From: a virus
DNA: 5,922 bases
IMG/VR virus record: IMGVR_UViG_3300045988_009961
Direction: 5' to 3' (one strand)
A program made the translations under genes and the position numbers. The notes under the pieces are model-generated. The model was not told the origin of the DNA, did not search any database, and saw nothing but the letters and a program-made list of their open reading frames with translations. Of this stretch, positions 823 through 5,922 are shown one piece after another (positions within the stretch are counted from its first letter, which is position 1; each line of letters begins with the position of its first letter).

Positions 823-1719
823 TCATCTTAAATAATCTCCTGGCTTTCTCTTTTCGCCATAATCTCCCGTTTTGTTTTGTGGCTTTGTGTATCCTTGGTT
901 TTGTGGCTTTGTGAATTCTTGCTTTCTGTCCATTTTTGGTTCTGGTACGGTTTTTTCAACTTTCTGCATTGCGTTATACGTTTTCAGAAGGTCTTTTACC
1001 AGTGATTCCGGGTTGCTGTGGCTCATGCTCATTTGTGATCCAATTGCATCTGCCAGCTGGTACCACTGTGAATGACTTTCCGACCGGTTGTAATAGCTCG
1101 TTGGCACGTTGCCGCTCAATGCTGATACTCCCAGCGCACTTGATGACGGCATGCCCATGCTTGCACCTGTGATGGTCGCTCCAGCTCCGCCCGGTGTGCT
1201 CGCTCCTCCGTTTGCGTATGCCAAAATAGGATTTAACCCTGCTTTTCGCATATCTTCTACGGCTCTTTGGTATGCCGTGCTGCTCATTCGCTCTTGAAAG
1301 TTGCGGTTTGCTAATGCTTCTGCGCTGTTGTAGCTCATGGCTGCGTTTTGTTCGATATGGTTATAAATTCCCTGCTGGATTGCTCCAAGTGTGTTATAAC
1401 CCATCTGCATTAACATGTTTTGGCGGTTTGTTTTGCTTTGAAATTCGTTTTGTCCGGCCTGCCATTTGTAGAAGTCTCCAAGATATTTCATGATTTGTTC
1501 ATCGTTGGTTCCTCCTTCGCTGTAGGAATCACTTGTCCCCCCGCCTTCACTATGGCTCTGATTGCTTCCATAACCTTTGCTGTCTGAAATCTGCCCGTAC
1601 AGGCTTGTTAATCCCTTTCCAAGCAGGCTTGCGCCTGCTGTGATTATTTGCGGATTGCTTGCCAGCCAGCCGCCTACCTTTGCCGCGCCTGTTGCAAGTG
1701 CTGCTCCTAATCCTGCCAT
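823..1719 (-). CDS. VP2: Minor capsid / DNA pilot protein VP2 (298 aa)
   Basis: The ORF sits directly after the capsid gene. It has a Gly/Ala-rich N-terminus (MAGLGAALATGAAKVGG...) and the block SSTAYQRAVEDMRKAGLNPILAY, which I recognise as the conserved core of gokushovirus-type VP2 proteins. The C-terminus is low-complexity with a KPQNxGYTKPQN repeat. Confidence 0.85.
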   Translation of the reverse strand: MAGLGAALATGAAKVGGWLASNPQIITAGASLLGKGLTSLYGQISDSKGYGSNQSHSEGGGTSDSYSEGGTNDEQIMKYLGDFYKWQAGQNEFQSKTNRQNMLMQMGYNTLGAIQQGIYNHIEQNAAMSYNSAEALANRNFQERMSSTAYQRAVEDMRKAGLNPILAYANGGASTPGGAGATITGASMGMPSSSALGVSALSGNVPTSYYNRSESHSQWYQLADAIGSQMSMSHSNPESLVKDLLKTYNAMQKVEKTVPEPKMDRKQEFTKPQNQGYTKPQNKTGDYGEKRKPGDYLR

Positions 1720-1757: not shown

Positions 1758-3443
1758 TTACAGCTTATACAGGCCCGGCACGCTGTACAGCGGCATCCGT
1801 CGTGTGGTCTTGTTCGCCACTCGCACGGCTCCGAAGAACTGCGGTTCGTCCTGCACGATGAGTGTTCTTGCGATCTCTGCTTTTCCTTCTGCCATCCATT
1901 CCTGACTGAGTGTCGGAACAGTGTCGTAGTTGTCGGCATAATGCCAGAAATCTAACGTTCCGGTTGCGTTGCTTCTCATAAGGCCGGACACCCGGTTCGG
2001 TTTCATGCGGTAGTCGGCCCATGCTTCCTGATAACCGAAGGTTTCTTCATCGGTCGCGTTACCAGTCAACATGATTTCTTTCTTCTTTACCGGCTGCTCC
2101 CCCAGATTTGCGAACTGCGGCACATAATAGTCCAGCCTGTCGCGTCGGCTCCAGAAGCGTTCAAGGCCCTGCTGATAGCTGCGATTGTGTCTCACACATG
2201 CAACGCCAATGACAAAGCCGTGCTCTTCAAAGCTCTTGGTAAACGAACTTTCGTTGATAGGCGTTACAGACACCGCACCAGTTTCACCGATAGGCGTATC
2301 GGTTGCCGTTTGCTGGCCGCTTGTCTGGATAATTTGGTTAATGTTGACCATGTATCGGCCTCCGCCCAGATATTCCGGCACCTGTACTGTTTTGTCACTG
2401 ATGGTCACATCCCACAGTGCGCGTACCTGTTCGCGGTACCGGCTGCCGCCTCTGGCCAGCGCCTCATAGTATTGCTGCACGGCTACGGCCTGCCGTAGGT
2501 CGTTGATTGTTGCTGCTGTTACGCTGCTCAGGTCTGCCGTCATTCTATCGCCTACTTTTGCGCCGCTGCTGGTATATCCCAAAACTGCACGCGCTTTTTC
2601 ATCTGTATTATTGTAGTTTTGGGTCATCATTTGACTTGATGTGCGGCGTAGGTATCCGTTTTCAGCTGTCCATGTTCCGTTGTTTTTTAGGTCCTGAATT
2701 GTTAATGGGTTGTCTTTTGCGTCTGCCCAGTAAATCGGCGCGTTTCCGCTCATTGGCAGCGTAATTTCCGGCCCGCGGCTTGGGTAGGGCAAACAGGATG
2801 TGAAGTAGTCGTGGAATTTGTTTACCGGTAGCAGATTTCCGCCCAACACAGCGTTTTTTAGGTCGTCTTCCAGTGTTTCGCTTTTTTCTGCCACAAAGTT
2901 GTATGTCACGTCTGCATCGTCGCTCTTCAGAACTGCTGCGTTGTCTACGTTTTCGTCTCTAAAAAACTCGTTCCAGATTTTGACATATGCCCGGATAGGT
3001 AAGGCATTGACGCTGAATGGTCTTTTAATCTTCGTAGGTACACCCATATAGTCCAGAATGCTTTTTTCATCCGGCCCGGGTTTTGATGTTGATGCATTGA
3101 TTTTGATTTGCGGAACTGCGTATTCCTTGGTAGGCATCCATGGCGTTTCCTCAACTTCGCCCATAAAGTGTTTGAAGTTGTCCCACAGAATTCTGTTCGG
3201 TGCATAGAAGTAATATAGGTCGATGTATGAGTTATCCATTACCGGATATTTCGGTGTCGTCATGCGGATAATTGCCGTTGTGTCTACCTGGAATGTGTCT
3301 CCCGGCAGTACTTCATCCACGAAGAACGGAATCAGTTTACCGGAATCAAATGTGGTTAGGATAGTCTGGTCACGATTGAATCGCGTTCGGCTTGCGTGCA
3401 TTTCCGGAATCTGAAGGAAATGTCTTTCATTATTTCTGTTCAT
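1758..3443 (-). CDS. VP1: Major capsid protein VP1 (561 aa, Microviridae F-protein family)
   Basis: This is the longest ORF. Its N-terminal block ...RTRFNRDQTILTTFDSGKLIPFFVDEVLPGDTFQVD...YPVMDNSYIDLYYFYAPNRILWDNF... is the hallmark of Microviridae capsid proteins. A strong SD, GGAGG (3454-3450), lies 6 nt before the ATG at 3443. Confidence 0.97.
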   Translation of the reverse strand: MNRNNERHFLQIPEMHASRTRFNRDQTILTTFDSGKLIPFFVDEVLPGDTFQVDTTAIIRMTTPKYPVMDNSYIDLYYFYAPNRILWDNFKHFMGEVEETPWMPTKEYAVPQIKINASTSKPGPDEKSILDYMGVPTKIKRPFSVNALPIRAYVKIWNEFFRDENVDNAAVLKSDDADVTYNFVAEKSETLEDDLKNAVLGGNLLPVNKFHDYFTSCLPYPSRGPEITLPMSGNAPIYWADAKDNPLTIQDLKNNGTWTAENGYLRRTSSQMMTQNYNNTDEKARAVLGYTSSGAKVGDRMTADLSSVTAATINDLRQAVAVQQYYEALARGGSRYREQVRALWDVTISDKTVQVPEYLGGGRYMVNINQIIQTSGQQTATDTPIGETGAVSVTPINESSFTKSFEEHGFVIGVACVRHNRSYQQGLERFWSRRDRLDYYVPQFANLGEQPVKKKEIMLTGNATDEETFGYQEAWADYRMKPNRVSGLMRSNATGTLDFWHYADNYDTVPTLSQEWMAEGKAEIARTLIVQDEPQFFGAVRVANKTTRRMPLYSVPGLYKL

Positions 3444-3840
3444 TTGCTTCCTCCTTCTGCTTCTTTTCCGGCGCGTTTTCCTGTGCTTTCTTCAGTTCTT
3501 CCAGCTTCATGGCGTTTACCTGTGCTGTTGCTATCATCTGGTGATACTCGTGCACGGTTTGCGGCCATTCGGTAACGTCCGTGATAGGCGTTTCTTCCTT
3601 GGATAGTGCTCCCTGTGACAGACTTGCCATAAAGGCTGGGTCGAAACTTGCTTTCCTGACGATGTTTTTGATGTCGCATTCGTCTGCATAGCTTTCAATT
3701 TCGGCCTGCACGTCGATGCTTTCAGTTTCCTGCAAGTACTCCTTGCCGTCCTTGTCTTTTGCCCAAACGTATTGTTTTCGCTCGTTTTTGCCCGGTTCGG
3801 AAAAGAGGGGCTTTCGCCCCTCCTCATATCGTTTATTCAT
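3430..3840 (-). CDS. VP3: Internal scaffolding protein VP3-like (136 aa from the ATG at 3840; the track's longer version starts at 3867)
   Basis: It lies directly upstream of VP1 and overlaps it by 14 nt. It is acidic with a lysine/glutamate-rich tail, and the motif ESYADECDIKNIVRK resembles the conserved ECDIN block of gokushovirus scaffold proteins. The ATG at 3840 has a GGGAGGG SD about 9 nt upstream and overlaps the stop of the preceding ORF (cATGAATAA). The ATG at 3867 has no SD. Confidence 0.7.
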   Translation of the reverse strand: MNKRYEEGRKPLFSEPGKNERKQYVWAKDKDGKEYLQETESIDVQAEIESYADECDIKNIVRKASFDPAFMASLSQGALSKEETPITDVTEWPQTVHEYHQMIATAQVNAMKLEELKKAQENAPEKKQKEEANEQK

Positions 3841-4072
3841 GTGGCTTGCCCTCCCATGCTTTATCATTCATGTTCTGGAACTGGCCGGTTTCATCTTCAA
3901 ACATTGCCAGTTTGTAGCCCACGTAATCGGCCGGGGATTGTCCGATGAACGTTTTTTCGTCTTTTGCCATTACGTTGCACATCCTCGCAAACGTTTCGTT
4001 GTTTTTGCTTTCGCCTACCCATGCGTAGCACTTCGCCACTTTATCGTAGATACCATAGTAACAGTGAATCAT
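3833..4072 (-). CDS. Small non-structural protein (79 aa), resembling the gokushovirus ORF5/VP5-type protein
   Basis: AAAGGA lies 7 nt upstream of the ATG at 4072. The pattern GIYDKVAKCY...NNETFARMC...PADYVGYKLAMFEDETGQF matches my memory of the conserved YD-K...A-R-F...P-DY-L-xxG-FD-xTG-F layout of VP5-like proteins. I did not verify this by search. Confidence 0.6.
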   Translation of the reverse strand: MIHCYYGIYDKVAKCYAWVGESKNNETFARMCNVMAKDEKTFIGQSPADYVGYKLAMFEDETGQFQNMNDKAWEGKPHE

Positions 4073-4087
4073 TGTTTTGTCCTTTCT

Positions 4088-4189
4088 TTACAGCCGAATT
4101 CCGCCGCGCATCGGTTTCTGGCTCAGGTTGATACTCTTCGTTTTTCGCGCGGTTATGTTGAACATGCGTTTATCCTTTCGCGCGTTCAT
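4088..4189 (-). CDS. Small basic DNA-binding/packaging peptide, J/VP8-like (33 aa, MNARKDKRMFNITARKTKSINLSQKPMRGGIRL)
   Basis: I found this by hand; it is too short for the ORF track. It has 9 Arg/Lys in 33 residues. The C-terminal PMRGGIRL matches the conserved C-terminus I recall for small basic proteins of gokushovirus-like phages. The ATG at 4189 lies 4 nt after the stop of the upstream ORF. An alternative internal start at 4165 has an AAAGGA SD 7 nt upstream and would give 25 aa. Confidence 0.65.
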   Translation of the reverse strand: MNARKDKRMFNITARKTKSINLSQKPMRGGIRL

Positions 4190-4193
4190 CTTC

Positions 4194-4421
4194 TTACGAT
4201 GTGCCATTGTAAATTCCCCTTCTTATAAGTTCTAGTTCGATTGCATCTGCAAAGCTCTTCAAGTGCCAGATTTCGTCTAGCATCTTCTTTGCGGTTTCTA
4301 TGTCCGCTATCTTGCGCAAGAGCTTATATTGCGCGTCTATCTCTTTGTATTTCTTTTCGAGAATGTTTCTTAGTTCATCTTCGGTCTGGTCCCTTATGTT
4401 CCAGCTTTTGTGTAAGGCCAT
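4194..4421 (-). CDS. Hypothetical protein (75 aa), predicted helical/coiled-coil, function unknown
   Basis: A strong AAGGAG SD lies 8 nt upstream of the ATG at 4421. The ORF is in the operon orientation and fills the gap between neighbouring genes. I recognise no motif. Confidence 0.6.
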   Translation of the reverse strand: MALHKSWNIRDQTEDELRNILEKKYKEIDAQYKLLRKIADIETAKKMLDEIWHLKSFADAIELELIRRGIYNGTS

Positions 4422-4426
4422 GTCTG

Positions 4427-4543
4427 TTACTCCTTTTCGTTCGCCGCGTCTTTAAGCGCGTGGTAGATCTCATCGAGCTTCTCAAGAATGTCCATCATGA
4501 TCTTAACGGCCTGCTTGACGTCCTTAATGCTGATAAGTGCCAT
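4427..4543 (-). CDS. Hypothetical small protein (38 aa, MALISIKDVKQAVKIMMDILEKLDEIYHALKDAANEKE)
   Basis: I found this by hand; it is not in the track. An AAAGGGGGT SD lies 7-8 nt upstream of the ATG at 4543. It starts 3 nt after the peptidase stop, and its own stop (4429-4427) lies 5 nt upstream of the next ATG. It looks like an amphipathic helix with no TM segment. Confidence 0.45.
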   Translation of the reverse strand: MALISIKDVKQAVKIMMDILEKLDEIYHALKDAANEKE

Positions 4544-4546
4544 GGT

Positions 4547-4930
4547 TTATACCCCCTTTCTATATTTGCTTTCGCGCATGTCAATGTGTACGAAATTAGT
4601 GTACCGGATGACCCCGCCTTTGTCAAGTATGCTGTCCGCATATTTTGCGACTTCTTTTGTGCTGTGGTTTTTTACTACGATATCAGCCGCCATTCCTTTG
4701 CAGTGATATGAGTTCCCCGCGCCGTTTACTTTTGCGTTGTGGCTTGGCGTTCTGTAGCCGCTGTTAATCGTACAAGGTGCATTGAAATGATTTCTAATCT
4801 TCTCCAGTGCTTCAAGTAGCTCTGTGCATAGGAGTAGTTCAAAACTTCCGTCTTTACATGCAAATTCTTTTGCTTCAAAGTGTTCACTTACCTTTCCGAA
4901 GTCTCTGTTGATGAAGTTAACGTGCTTCAT
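4547..4930 (-). CDS. Zinc peptidoglycan peptidase, Peptidase_M15 (M15A / VanY-like, LAS fold), 127 aa
   Basis: The sequence HFEAKEFACKDGS...LLEALEKIRNHFNAPCTINSGYRTPSHNAKVNGAGNSYHCKGMAADIVV...NFVHIDMR carries the SGYR, SxHxxGxAxD and C-terminal H-x-D zinc-ligand layout of M15 peptidases. An AAGGAG SD lies 8 nt before the ATG at 4930. The track's 202-aa version (start 5155) adds a low-complexity basic extension, which is the off-frame read of the upstream ORF. Confidence 0.9.
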   Translation of the reverse strand: MKHVNFINRDFGKVSEHFEAKEFACKDGSFELLLCTELLEALEKIRNHFNAPCTINSGYRTPSHNAKVNGAGNSYHCKGMAADIVVKNHSTKEVAKYADSILDKGGVIRYTNFVHIDMRESKYRKGV

Positions 4931-4935
4931 GGTGT

Positions 4936-5118
4936 TCACTCCTTTTCGGTAAAGTACATTTGCACTTCCTCGACTTTGCATAATGAGTAGATGCCTTTGT
5001 GTTCGTTTGCGTATCTTTTTGCTCTTTGTTTTGCGTCTTTGGGTTCTGCGTTTATTCTTAGTACTGTTTCTACTCTTTCGTTGGCTTTTAATGCTCTCAG
5101 TTCGTATCTGTGCTTCAT
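4936..5118 (-). CDS. Hypothetical protein (60 aa, MKHRYELRALKANERVETVLRINAEPKDAKQRAKRYANEHKGIYSLCKVEEVQMYFTEKE), first gene after the promoter
   Basis: AAAGGAAGGTG lies 6 nt upstream of the ATG at 5118. The track start at 5127 is a GTG sitting inside that SD. The TGA stop lies within the peptidase SD region. I recognise no motif. Confidence 0.55.
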   Translation of the reverse strand: MKHRYELRALKANERVETVLRINAEPKDAKQRAKRYANEHKGIYSLCKVEEVQMYFTEKE

Positions 5119-5145
5119 TTTTAGCACCTTCCTTTCTGTGATTAT

Positions 5146-5174
5146 ATTCTATCATATTTTTAGGTTTTTGTTAA
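5146..5174 (-). promoter_or_regulatory. Sigma70/SigA-type promoter for the main operon
   Basis: The minus strand reads TTAACA (5174-5169), a 17-nt spacer, then TGaTAGAAT (extended -10, 5154-5146). It is preceded by an A/T tract (TTTTTTAAAAAAA, UP-element-like, 5176-5190) and lies about 28 nt upstream of the first ATG at 5118. Confidence 0.6.
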
Positions 5175-5212
5175 GCTTTTTTTAAAAAATTTAGAAAACT
5201 TTTCCTAGGATA

Positions 5213-5290
5213 GGAGCGCCGTTTAACTCCCCGCCGTGGCGGCTCATTTTGATTTGACCGGCAAAGCCGGTTAGACTATTGGTGCGCTCC
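5213..5290. other. GC-rich multi-hairpin element in the intergenic region
   Basis: The closing stem GGAGCGC (5213-5219) pairs with GCGCTCC (5284-5290). It encloses hairpins CCGC-CGTG-GCGG (5231-5242) and ACCGGC-AAA-GCCGGT (5257-5271). Alternative pairings are possible, and I did not compute a fold. Confidence 0.35.
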
Positions 5291-5342
5291 GTCAGACGTT
5301 GCCGTCACCGCTTACCCTGTTTTATTGGCCGTTCTTTCAACA

Positions 5343-5424
5343 CTTTCCACATAGTTTTCAACTTTTCCACATTGTTAAATTTTATCACAACAGAGTGTTT
5401 CAACAATTCAACAAGTTATCCACA
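5343..5424 (+). promoter_or_regulatory. Dispersed DnaA-box-like sites interleaved with TTCAACA repeats
   Basis: The sites are CTTTCCACA 5343-5351 (7/9 to TTATCCACA), TTTTCCACA 5363-5371 (8/9, fits TTWTNCACA) and TTATCCACA 5416-5424 (9/9), all in the same orientation. (T)TTCAACA occurs at 5335, 5356, 5398, 5407 and 5429. Confidence 0.5.
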
Positions 5425-5471
5425 ATTCTTTCAACACTTCAAAAGTGCATTTTTTATTGATGCTTTGTCGT

Positions 5472-5498
5472 TTTTCCATGTTTTCCACGTTTTCCACG
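5472..5498 (+). repeat. Three head-to-tail 9-nt repeats, TTTTCCATG / TTTTCCACG / TTTTCCACG (DnaA-box-like, 6-7/9)
   Basis: Read directly from the sequence. They have the same orientation as the boxes at 5343-5424. Confidence 0.85.
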
Positions 5499-5500
5499 TT

Positions 5501-5516
5501 ACTACTACTACGGCTA
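5501..5516. repeat. Trinucleotide repeat ACTACTACTAC GG CTA. In phase it reads CTA CTA CTA CGG CTA, which is TAG repeats on the minus strand.
   Basis: Read directly from the sequence. It starts 3 nt after the tandem 9-mers and is followed by the AT-rich stretch AACAAGTTAATAAATATATA (5518-5537). Confidence 0.85.
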
Positions 5517-5530
5517 CAACAAGTTAATAA

Positions 5531-5577
5531 ATATATACGCGTGCGTGCGTGCGCGTAGACGCGCGCGTATGCGCGTG
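5531..5577. repeat. Alternating purine-pyrimidine (CG/TG) tract, with Z-DNA or cruciform potential
   Basis: ATATATACGCGTGCGTGCGTGCGCGTA (5531-5557) is 27 nt of perfect R-Y alternation. There is a one-base phase slip at G5558. ACGCGCGCGTATGCGCGTG (5559-5577) gives 19 more. The tract contains the palindromes ACGCGT and ACGCGCGCGT. Confidence 0.85.
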
Positions 5578-5582
5578 AATAA

Positions 5583-5614
5583 AGCCTAGTACCTTACTTG
5601 ATAGGTACTAGGCT
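5583..5614 (-). terminator. Perfect 12-bp inverted repeat with an 8-nt loop, 17 nt downstream of the rep stop. It is a candidate terminator and/or origin hairpin.
   Basis: AGCCTAGTACCT (5583-5594), TACTTGAT (loop), AGGTACTAGGCT (5603-5614). On the minus strand it is followed by TTATTCAC, a poor U-tract. Confidence 0.4.
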
Positions 5615-5630
5615 AGGTGACACTAAAATT

Positions 5631-5922
5631 TTACAAACCGCCCTTTTGTAGCTTTACAGATTTTTTGATAACTCTTTCTTTTGTCTTTAGATCTTCTGCG
5701 AAATCTGCGCTTTCATATTTGAGCCTGTTTTGTTCGATTACAGCTTTCTGCCTGTTTCTTTTGATTCTCCATAACCGTTCCGGGTTTTCCGCTTCCATCA
5801 TTTTTTCATAATATCGTGGAATTTGTGCTTTTTTTCCGTTGGTACACTGGATATAGCCTTTTCTCCAAATTTCCTCTTTGTGCTCCTGATAGTAGGAATC
5901 GCCAAGTCCCGGTTTCAGGCTC
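5631..5922 (-). CDS. VP4: Replication initiation protein VP4, 3' part. Only 5631-5827 is unique; 5828-5922 duplicates 1-95. The TAA stop is at 5633-5631.
   Basis: The frame carried over from position 1 (equivalent to 5828) reads ...NGKKAQIPRYYEKMMEAENPERLWRIKRNRQKAVIEQNRLKYESADFAEDLKTKERVIKKSVKLQKGGL*. Total CDS is 721 + 197 = 918 nt, or 305 aa. Confidence 0.9.
   Translation of the reverse strand, partial: SLKPGLGDSYYQEHKEEIWRKGYIQCTNGKKAQIPRYYEKMMEAENPERLWRIKRNRQKAVIEQNRLKYESADFAEDLKTKERVIKKSVKLQKGGL
5828..5922. repeat. Terminal redundancy copy 2 (identical to 1-95)
   Basis: Same 95/95 comparison as copy 1. Confidence 0.97.

Follow-up and report, generated by a model that had tools for sequence, protein, structure and literature searches.

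IMG/VR virus record IMGVR_UViG_3300045988_009961 is a DNA of 5,922 nucleotides (nt), referred to in its full length as the window, and it encodes a 127-amino-acid (aa) M15 peptidase on the minus strand at 4547–4930. Judging from sequence comparisons, we lean towards the view that this soluble, single-domain M15A peptidase is the lysis enzyme of a clade of gut gokushoviruses. Late in infection the peptidase would cut bonds in the stem peptides or cross-links of the host's peptidoglycan and free the progeny, and it would functionally replace the membrane lysis peptide of a sister clade.

The open reading frame encodes an M15 zinc peptidase

The protein matches the Pfam family Peptidase_M15_3 (PF08291) with 82.4 bits (cut-off 23.2, E = 3.1e-23), the match spanning residues 17–117 and profile positions 2–108 of 108. 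It also matches PHROG 894, 'endolysin' (E = 4e-37), while its score against NCBIfam MepK (46 bits, cut-off 185) is below threshold. The motifs SGYR (57–60), H76-x6-D83 and H115-x-D117 are unchanged in 38/38 homologues with 70–92% identity. A preliminary description of this DNA had read an M15/LAS zinc-ligand layout from the letters and proposed a Pfam profile search as a check; Peptidase_M15_3 is over threshold along the whole profile and H76, D83, H115 and D117 are invariant, so the layout is borne out. The gene and its zinc-site codons are placed as follows.

4547..4930, minus strand: coding sequence of the single-domain Peptidase_M15_3 (M15A) zinc peptidase, 127 aa, stop codon included
4939..4942, minus strand: Shine-Dalgarno (SD) sequence GGAG, 8 nt 5' of the ATG at 4930, read from the sequence
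4703..4705, minus strand: codon of His76, first zinc ligand of H-x6-D (SYHCKGMAAD); invariant, aligns with His154 of 1LBU
4682..4684, minus strand: codon of Asp83, second zinc ligand; invariant, aligns with Asp161 of 1LBU
4580..4588, minus strand: codons of His115-Ile116-Asp117 (VHID), presumed third zinc ligand and catalytic acid; H115 and D117 invariant

An AlphaFold2 model of the peptidase reached a pLDDT of 91.4 and a pTM of 0.85. The top Foldseek matches in the Protein Data Bank (PDB) were all LAS-fold proteins, namely 1LBU, the hedgehog N-domain, Ply500, VanY/VanXY, ChiX and LysECD7 (probability 0.9–1.0, E ~3e-3 to 0.14, TM-score 0.44–0.56). Searched by sequence, the PDB yielded 1LBU alone, the zinc DD-carboxypeptidase of Streptomyces albus (E = 7e-6 over 45 residues). 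The peptidase is predicted to have the LAS fold and the H-x6-D...H zinc site in common with 1LBU (M15A), VanX/VanY, Ply500, ChiX and LysECD7, although 1LBU is only remotely similar to it by sequence and the others were matched through the fold only. We conclude from these comparisons that the ORF (open reading frame) encodes a bona fide member of the M15A (Peptidase_M15_3) family, with a predicted LAS fold and predicted zinc peptidase activity.

Translation starts at an ATG (4930–4928, read from the sequence) behind the SD given above, in line with the strong SD noted previously. The TGA stop of the neighbouring ORF o63 (4938–4936) sits within the spacer between SD and ATG, which suggests translational coupling. 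We rejected a 202-aa version that would begin in frame at ATG 5155 and gain a polycationic extension at its N-terminus. Nearly all of the best 120 listed database homologues are 127 aa long and the extension, which is basic and 75 codons in length, is shared by only 2/54 relatives, so the true length is 127 aa. The extension overlaps o63 in a different frame, and ATG 5155 lacks an SD and falls within a promoter-like −10 element. The peptidase ORF is free-standing, being overprinted on no other gene, and it is not fused to VP2 or another structural protein. Pairwise ratios of nonsynonymous to synonymous substitution (dN/dS) between the peptidase and its relatives are 0.07–0.17, and the comparison confirms a real gene under strong purifying selection, far beyond chance.

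The peptidase and small transmembrane ORFs mostly occupy different genomes

Transmembrane (TM) ORFs were detected by a Kyte-Doolittle hydropathy scan with a threshold of 1.6 over 19 residues, applied to ORFs of at least 25 aa. The joint distribution of the peptidase and of small TM ORFs was counted in 170 genomes of 5.3–6.3 kb.

Peptidase-bearing genomes: 100 without a TM ORF, 5 with a TM ORF
Peptidase-less genomes: 9 without a TM ORF, 56 with a TM ORF

The sister clade (for example KT264788), whose VP1 is ~55% identical to that of the window, has no peptidase. Its members carry small TM ORFs whose positions are fixed: a TM peptide of 32–38 aa (for example MSAVFASMTMAFLAAGFYLVINAINIIKDWFK) between the small ORF o39 and VP5, joined by 4-nt overlaps, and further hydrophobic ORFs of 27–81 aa after VP4 (FYPWNDIFWLILMLILLWITC; LLYYYLLVVVVVVGSVEML). 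The GTG start of the 32–38-aa ORF overlaps the o39 stop, its GGAGG is supplied by the 'RGG' codons of o39, and its product has the motif ...IDIIK(D/E)WFK. In the window the slot between o39 and VP5 measures only 15 nt. The small single-TM ORFs of the sister clade were found in the following genomes.

L089 (KT264788): 4756–4872 and 3690–3773
L091, L092 and L093
L219–L281

These ORFs are unannotated in the GenBank records examined and gave no PHROG match; by analogy with known lysis proteins we regard them as candidate single-gene lysis peptides. The pattern fits a scheme in which the peptidase and the TM peptides would be alternative lysis modules. In two genomes, L005 (KT264793; 655–774, minus strand) and L037 (3251–3340), a small TM ORF fills the slot between o39 and VP5 and the peptidase is encoded as well.

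The identity of the peptidase shows no correlation with that of VP1 (r = −0.12). There are two peptidase allele classes, ~50% identical, on near-identical backbones, and backbones with 90–92% VP1 identity can carry a peptidase allele that is only 50% identical. This independence from VP1 implies that the locus is exchanged by recombination, as described in PMC9239249.

Hydropathy scans find no membrane partner or export signal

No coding-strand ORF of at least 25 aa in the window passed the hydropathy threshold, and the maximum, 1.09, lies in the Gly/Ala-rich N-terminus of VP2. A stop-to-stop scan of the three coding frames with windows of 15–21 residues gave no value above 1.39 (15 residues) or 1.09 (19 residues). 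The N-terminus of the peptidase is charged, without a hydrophobic segment, and has no signal, signal-arrest-release (SAR) or twin-arginine (Tat) motif. As a positive control, the same scan was run on 37 larger non-microviral loci, and in every one of them it picked up one or more TM ORFs no further than 1.5 kb from the M15 homologue; at ~20 of these loci the endolysin gene directly adjoins an ORF of 149–182 aa that encodes one to three TM segments. The preliminary description had likewise seen no hydrophobic segment at the N-terminus of the peptidase and no holin, signal or amurin candidate, and had singled out the VP2 N-terminus as the only mildly hydrophobic region. All of this agrees with the scans, and the lack of such an ORF extends to ~100 related genomes.

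Of the parts of a canonical holin-endolysin system, the window thus has an enzyme homologous to endolysins and lacks the holin, signal or SAR part. Nor does the peptidase resemble an amurin, a small membrane-anchored and often overprinted protein, since it is soluble and has an ORF to itself. As with phiX174 E and other amurins, a tiny single-stranded DNA or RNA phage would lyse its host through one dedicated gene and no holin. Amurins, however, are membrane proteins of small size that act by inhibiting MraY, MurA or MurJ, and the peptidase is a soluble hydrolase that has no TM segment.

The antisense strand is T-rich and holds 16 hydrophobic ORFs of at least 40 aa. As a hidden holin these were rejected in 15/16 cases, in which the frame is not kept open in relatives. 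The remaining ORF (4077–4235, plus strand, 52 aa, opposite o39) is open in 72/101 relatives, and its hydrophobic stretch is broken by two Arg. Only His and Gln codons of o39 can make antisense stops, so that an open frame is expected from the K/R-rich composition of o39, and the frame at 4077–4235 would most simply be a by-product of that composition.

Endolysin ancestry and occurrence in gut microviruses

The nearest homologues in tailed phages and prophages (45–59% identity) belong to phages of Oscillospiraceae, Lachnospiraceae, Eubacteriaceae and Faecalibacterium, and are mostly C-terminal domains of larger proteins. Two that were examined have the architecture NAGPA+M15_3, and one of these (341 aa) lies directly behind a Phage_holin_4_1 gene (E = 7e-38). 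Identity to the annotated endolysins of Vibrio phage D478 and Faecalibacterium phage FP_oengus is 44–46%. The endolysins of Clostridia tailed phages and prophages (Oscillospiraceae, Lachnospiraceae; for example FP_oengus) have a catalytic domain 45–59% identical to the peptidase with the same motifs, but they are multidomain proteins of 190–500 aa in a canonical holin-endolysin cassette, whereas the microviral gene encodes the domain alone, preceded by 12 N-terminal residues of its own. The comparison shows that the peptidase arrived as a bare catalytic domain, without a holin or the N-terminal NAGPA domain.

The ancestry of the peptidase points to Clostridia phages. A search for prophages with VP1 against 185,579 species genomes gave no match, and the peptidase search of the species genomes returned only two microvirus-sized contigs in metagenome-assembled genomes (MAGs) of Bacteroidales, in addition to Clostridia prophage endolysins. 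The two contigs, L161 (CAVKUS010000079) and L162 (CALBJK010000280), are gokushovirus-like and 5.7–5.8 kb long (VP1 40–51% and peptidase 58–65% identical), and were binned in MAGs named Bacteroides sp. CAG:545 and Prevotella sp. This binning is a weak host hint or a binning artefact.

The peptidase gene has been known since 2012 and is common in gut microviruses. M15_3 peptidase genes were described by Roux et al. 2012 for 11 human-associated Microviridae, of which five were Gokushovirinae, and were shown to be carried by Gokushovirinae and Alpavirinae of the gut. The nearest homologues were in Faecalibacterium and beside holins in prophages; the authors inferred horizontal acquisition and suggested that the enzymes act as endolysins (PMC3394797). 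Peptidases are described as typical lysis-associated accessory genes of microviruses by Kirchberger et al., who also documented their exchange between microvirus families (PMC9239249), and in PMC11499846 (see also PMC7062461). The peptidase shares with the M15_3 genes of gut Gokushovirinae and Alpavirinae its Pfam family, size (127–132 aa), slot between VP4 and VP5, proposed endolysin role and origin by horizontal gene transfer, and nothing fundamental differs here.

In the protein database 695 clusters match the peptidase at E ≤ 1e-5; the best 120 of them are mostly on contigs of ~5.5–6 kb, and some are named 'peptidase [Microviridae sp.]'. IMG/VR holds at least 556 confirmed peptidase loci. 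When IMG/VR genomes are ranked by VP1 similarity, every essentially complete member of the top 80 (72–92% identity) has the peptidase. KT264792 encodes a peptidase that is 92% identical, and IMG/VR genome L098 one that is 97.6% identical. GenBank relatives are annotated 'peptidase M15' (KX513877, KX513868) or 'similar to peptidase' (MG945xxx), and KT264792 is unannotated. Muralytic enzymes had been called uncommon in genomes this small, and the roles suggested for the enzyme unusual for its family; neither premise is supported by the counts and reports above, with an accessory gene that was reported in 2012, is standard and is annotated in GenBank relatives. The suggestion of a holin-independent endolysin survives as our leading reading, stripped of the premise that it would be unusual. 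In the literature we found no experimental test of any microviral M15 peptidase or of its export.

A different microviral peptidoglycan hydrolase, Gp7 of the 'Tainavirinae' microvirus Ebor, degraded peptidoglycan in a zymogram (PMC11980548). Like the peptidase, it is an accessory gene product resembling enzymes of tailed phages, but it is apparently of another enzyme type, with an HHpred match to PDB 6SSC, the term lysozyme in the methods, and no M15 assignment; Ebor also encodes a predicted 45-aa membrane protein, Gp1, and Gp7 was found in virions in trace amounts (PMC11980548).

Lysis from outside or inside the membrane, entry, or a missed partner

Without a signal or SAR sequence and without a phage holin, a lysis enzyme would reach the wall by a route that is not encoded as a TM protein. 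The membrane might be damaged by the Gly/Ala-rich, glycine-zipper-like N-terminus of VP2 or by the amphipathic (but acidic) product of o38, or a host export or leak pathway might be used. Several points weigh against the peptidase as a wall-degrading lysis enzyme. No export route is identifiable, the coding-strand frames can encode no TM helix, the protein carries none of the export motifs sought, and an intact membrane cannot be passed by a folded 14-kDa enzyme. The distribution of peptidase and TM peptides follows essentially two clades and so reflects few independent evolutionary events. L005 and L037 could be recombinant intermediates, or their TM peptide could act as a holin for the peptidase, and the co-occurrence could mean that the TM peptide is a holin where it is present.

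No export would be needed if the peptidase acted inside the cytoplasm as a single-gene lysis protein, hydrolysing D-Ala-D-Ala, UDP-MurNAc-pentapeptide or lipid I/II and starving wall synthesis, which we consider unlikely. The outcome would be like that of phiX174 E, Q-beta A2 or LysM, reached by catalysis instead of inhibitor binding. Cytoplasmic action would explain, with no extra assumptions, ~100 strongly selected genomes that lack a membrane protein or export signal, and the gene fills the niche of small TM peptides resembling single-gene lysis proteins. The clan has DD-carboxypeptidases and dipeptidases, 1LBU itself being a D-Ala-D-Ala carboxypeptidase. One of the dipeptidases is the zinc enzyme VanX, which hydrolyses D-Ala-D-Ala; E. 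coli cells that overexpress it in their cytoplasm lyse because D-Ala-D-Ala incorporation is blocked, according to the review PMC11514776 (citing Sohya 2014). The closest homologues (45–59%), however, are domains of endolysins that depend on a holin and build up in the cytoplasm of infected cells, and destruction of precursors by such domains would upset the timing of lysis. E. coli tolerates other peptidase and amidase endolysins in its cytoplasm, among them T7 lysozyme, T5 endolysin and Ply500. By analogy with VanX one may picture an 'enzymatic amurin', a captured M15 endolysin domain that would lyse from the cytoplasm via precursors and need no holin, signal or membrane protein, but this we hold to be rather doubtful.

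We think it improbable that the peptidase is a virion-associated entry enzyme, of which a few packaged or capsid-bound copies would open the peptidoglycan at genome delivery while something else causes lysis. M15A domains do occur inside phage proteins of 800–1190 aa that are described as cell-wall hydrolases and are apparently virion-associated, and the trace amount of Ebor Gp7 in virions (PMC11980548) is a weak precedent. Yet the peptidase lacks a fusion to VP2 or another structural protein, its gene lies in the accessory region among non-structural small ORFs, and peptidase-less gokushoviruses still infect, presumably, similar hosts. The T=1 capsid already has to take up a genome of 5.8 kb, large for a gokushovirus. 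An entry role also leaves the absence of small TM ORFs in peptidase-bearing genomes unexplained, and this complementary distribution disfavours the entry through a thick wall that the preliminary description had offered as an option. Equally improbable, in our estimate, is a holin-type partner that escaped the scan, whether it is encoded on the antisense strand, is a peptide of very small size or weak hydrophobicity, or is a host or prophage holin that the phage exploits. The 16 hydrophobic antisense ORFs, with the one at 4077–4235 open in most relatives, the combination of peptidase and TM ORF in L005 and L037, and the use of a hydropathy scan in place of a trained predictor are compatible with such a partner. 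Against it stand the closed frames of 15/16 antisense ORFs in relatives, the compositional origin expected for the last one and the two Arg that interrupt its stretch, and the success of the scan at all 37 larger loci. Most known microviruses keep all genes on one strand. A single complementary-strand ORF was reported as highly unusual by Roux et al. 2012 (PMC3394797).

Genome organization and neighbouring ORFs

The window begins and ends with an exact 95-nt direct repeat (1–95 = 5828–5922), which implies a circle of 5827 nt; the window reads past the junction of what is a circular Gokushovirinae genome. This genome has the layout of that subfamily, a circle of ~4.5–6 kb with VP1, VP2 pilot, VP3 scaffold, VP4 Rep and VP5 on a single strand, and every recognizable gene lies on the minus strand. 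The G+C content is ~45%.

1758–3443, minus strand: VP1 (Phage_F, E = 2e-140)
823–1719, minus strand: VP2 pilot protein (phrog_8742, E = 5e-107)
3430–3867, minus strand: VP3 scaffold (Chlamy_scaf)
3833–4072, minus strand: VP5 (Phage_ORF5)
826 -> 1, then 5827 -> 5631, across the junction, minus strand: VP4 (Rep), ORF

The best GenBank matches of the window are Gokushovirinae, the top one being Gokushovirus WZ-2015a KT264792 from human faeces, which aligns with 80% of the window at 84% nt identity. Compared with GenBank, the genome is, by sequence identity, a new species-level mosaic. VP2 occurs in two allele classes, ~53% vs 93–98% identical to that of the window (compared with L096, L097 and L098). 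These classes are independent of VP1 and VP4 identity, which makes the genome a mosaic of exchanged modules, and VP2 and the peptidase seem each to have been swapped independently of VP1.

The accessory region between VP4 and VP5 has the order VP4 - (o63) - peptidase - o38 - o75 - o39 - VP5, of which the part from the peptidase to VP5 is kept in 47–51 of 54 peptidase-bearing genomes. Its small ORFs, with their occurrence in those 54 relatives, are listed below.

4936..5127, minus strand: o63, 63 aa, likely true start ATG 5118, a neighbour not specific to the peptidase; in 10/54
4427..4543, minus strand: o38, 38 aa, starting 4 nt after the peptidase stop; in 50/54
4194..4421, minus strand: o75, 75 aa, helical, a lineage core gene; in 47/54
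4088..4207, minus strand: o39, 39 aa, net charge +12 (MAHRKKMNARKDKRMF...MRGGIRL); in 51/54

Searches of Pfam, PHROG and NCBIfam gave no match of value for o63, o38 or o75. The helix predicted for the product of o38 is strongly amphipathic, with a hydrophobic moment of 0.64, and acidic, with a net charge of −2. The ORF o39, which overlaps the end of o75, matches phrog_10695 (E = 4e-12), a PHROG of unknown function, and probably encodes a small DNA-binding virion or packaging protein of the VP8/J-like kind. We rejected o38, o75 and o63 as a peptidase-specific chaperone or disruptor, all three being present in peptidase-less genomes as well: o63 in L243, a homologue of o38 in L230, and o75 in the sister clade, which also has o39. 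With o63, o38, o75 and o39 present in both clades, the peptidase appears as a solitary insert without a dedicated partner.

A stretch of ~500 nt without ORFs and with a low G+C of 0.38–0.40 (5128–5630, minus strand) contains several sequence elements. A perfect 12-bp hairpin (5583–5614; z = −4.3 vs shuffles, computed as DNA) lies directly 3' of the VP4 stop and is followed by an alternating purine-pyrimidine CG/CA tract (~5535–5580). A (GTA)4 run and at least five iterated (A/C)NGTGGAAA(A) and AAGTGTTGAAAGAA motifs occupy ~5330–5510, two short GC hairpins lie within the stretch, and a promoter-like TTAACA-17-TGnTAGAAT (5174–5146) stands immediately ahead of o63. These elements could be candidate origin/iteron or regulatory sequences. 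A promoter and terminator scan of the window gave counts not above those in shuffles, and an Rfam search returned just two sub-threshold miRNA matches, which we ascribe to chance.

Implications for gokushovirus lysis

As a gene the peptidase adds nothing new, being a recognized, horizontally acquired accessory gene of gut microviruses, and its interest lies in the mechanism: ~100 genomes apparently lyse their host with a soluble wall hydrolase and without a membrane protein. To our knowledge, cell lysis by gokushoviruses has not been worked out experimentally. The natural swap between the peptidase and single-TM peptides of 32–38 aa, whose slot lies close to that of the peptidase in the accessory region, offers an experimental handle on it and would allow a test for a lytic enzyme that is holin-free or acts in the cytoplasm. 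Either answer would be of interest to phage-lysis research, to the engineering of autolytic strains and to work on enzybiotics.

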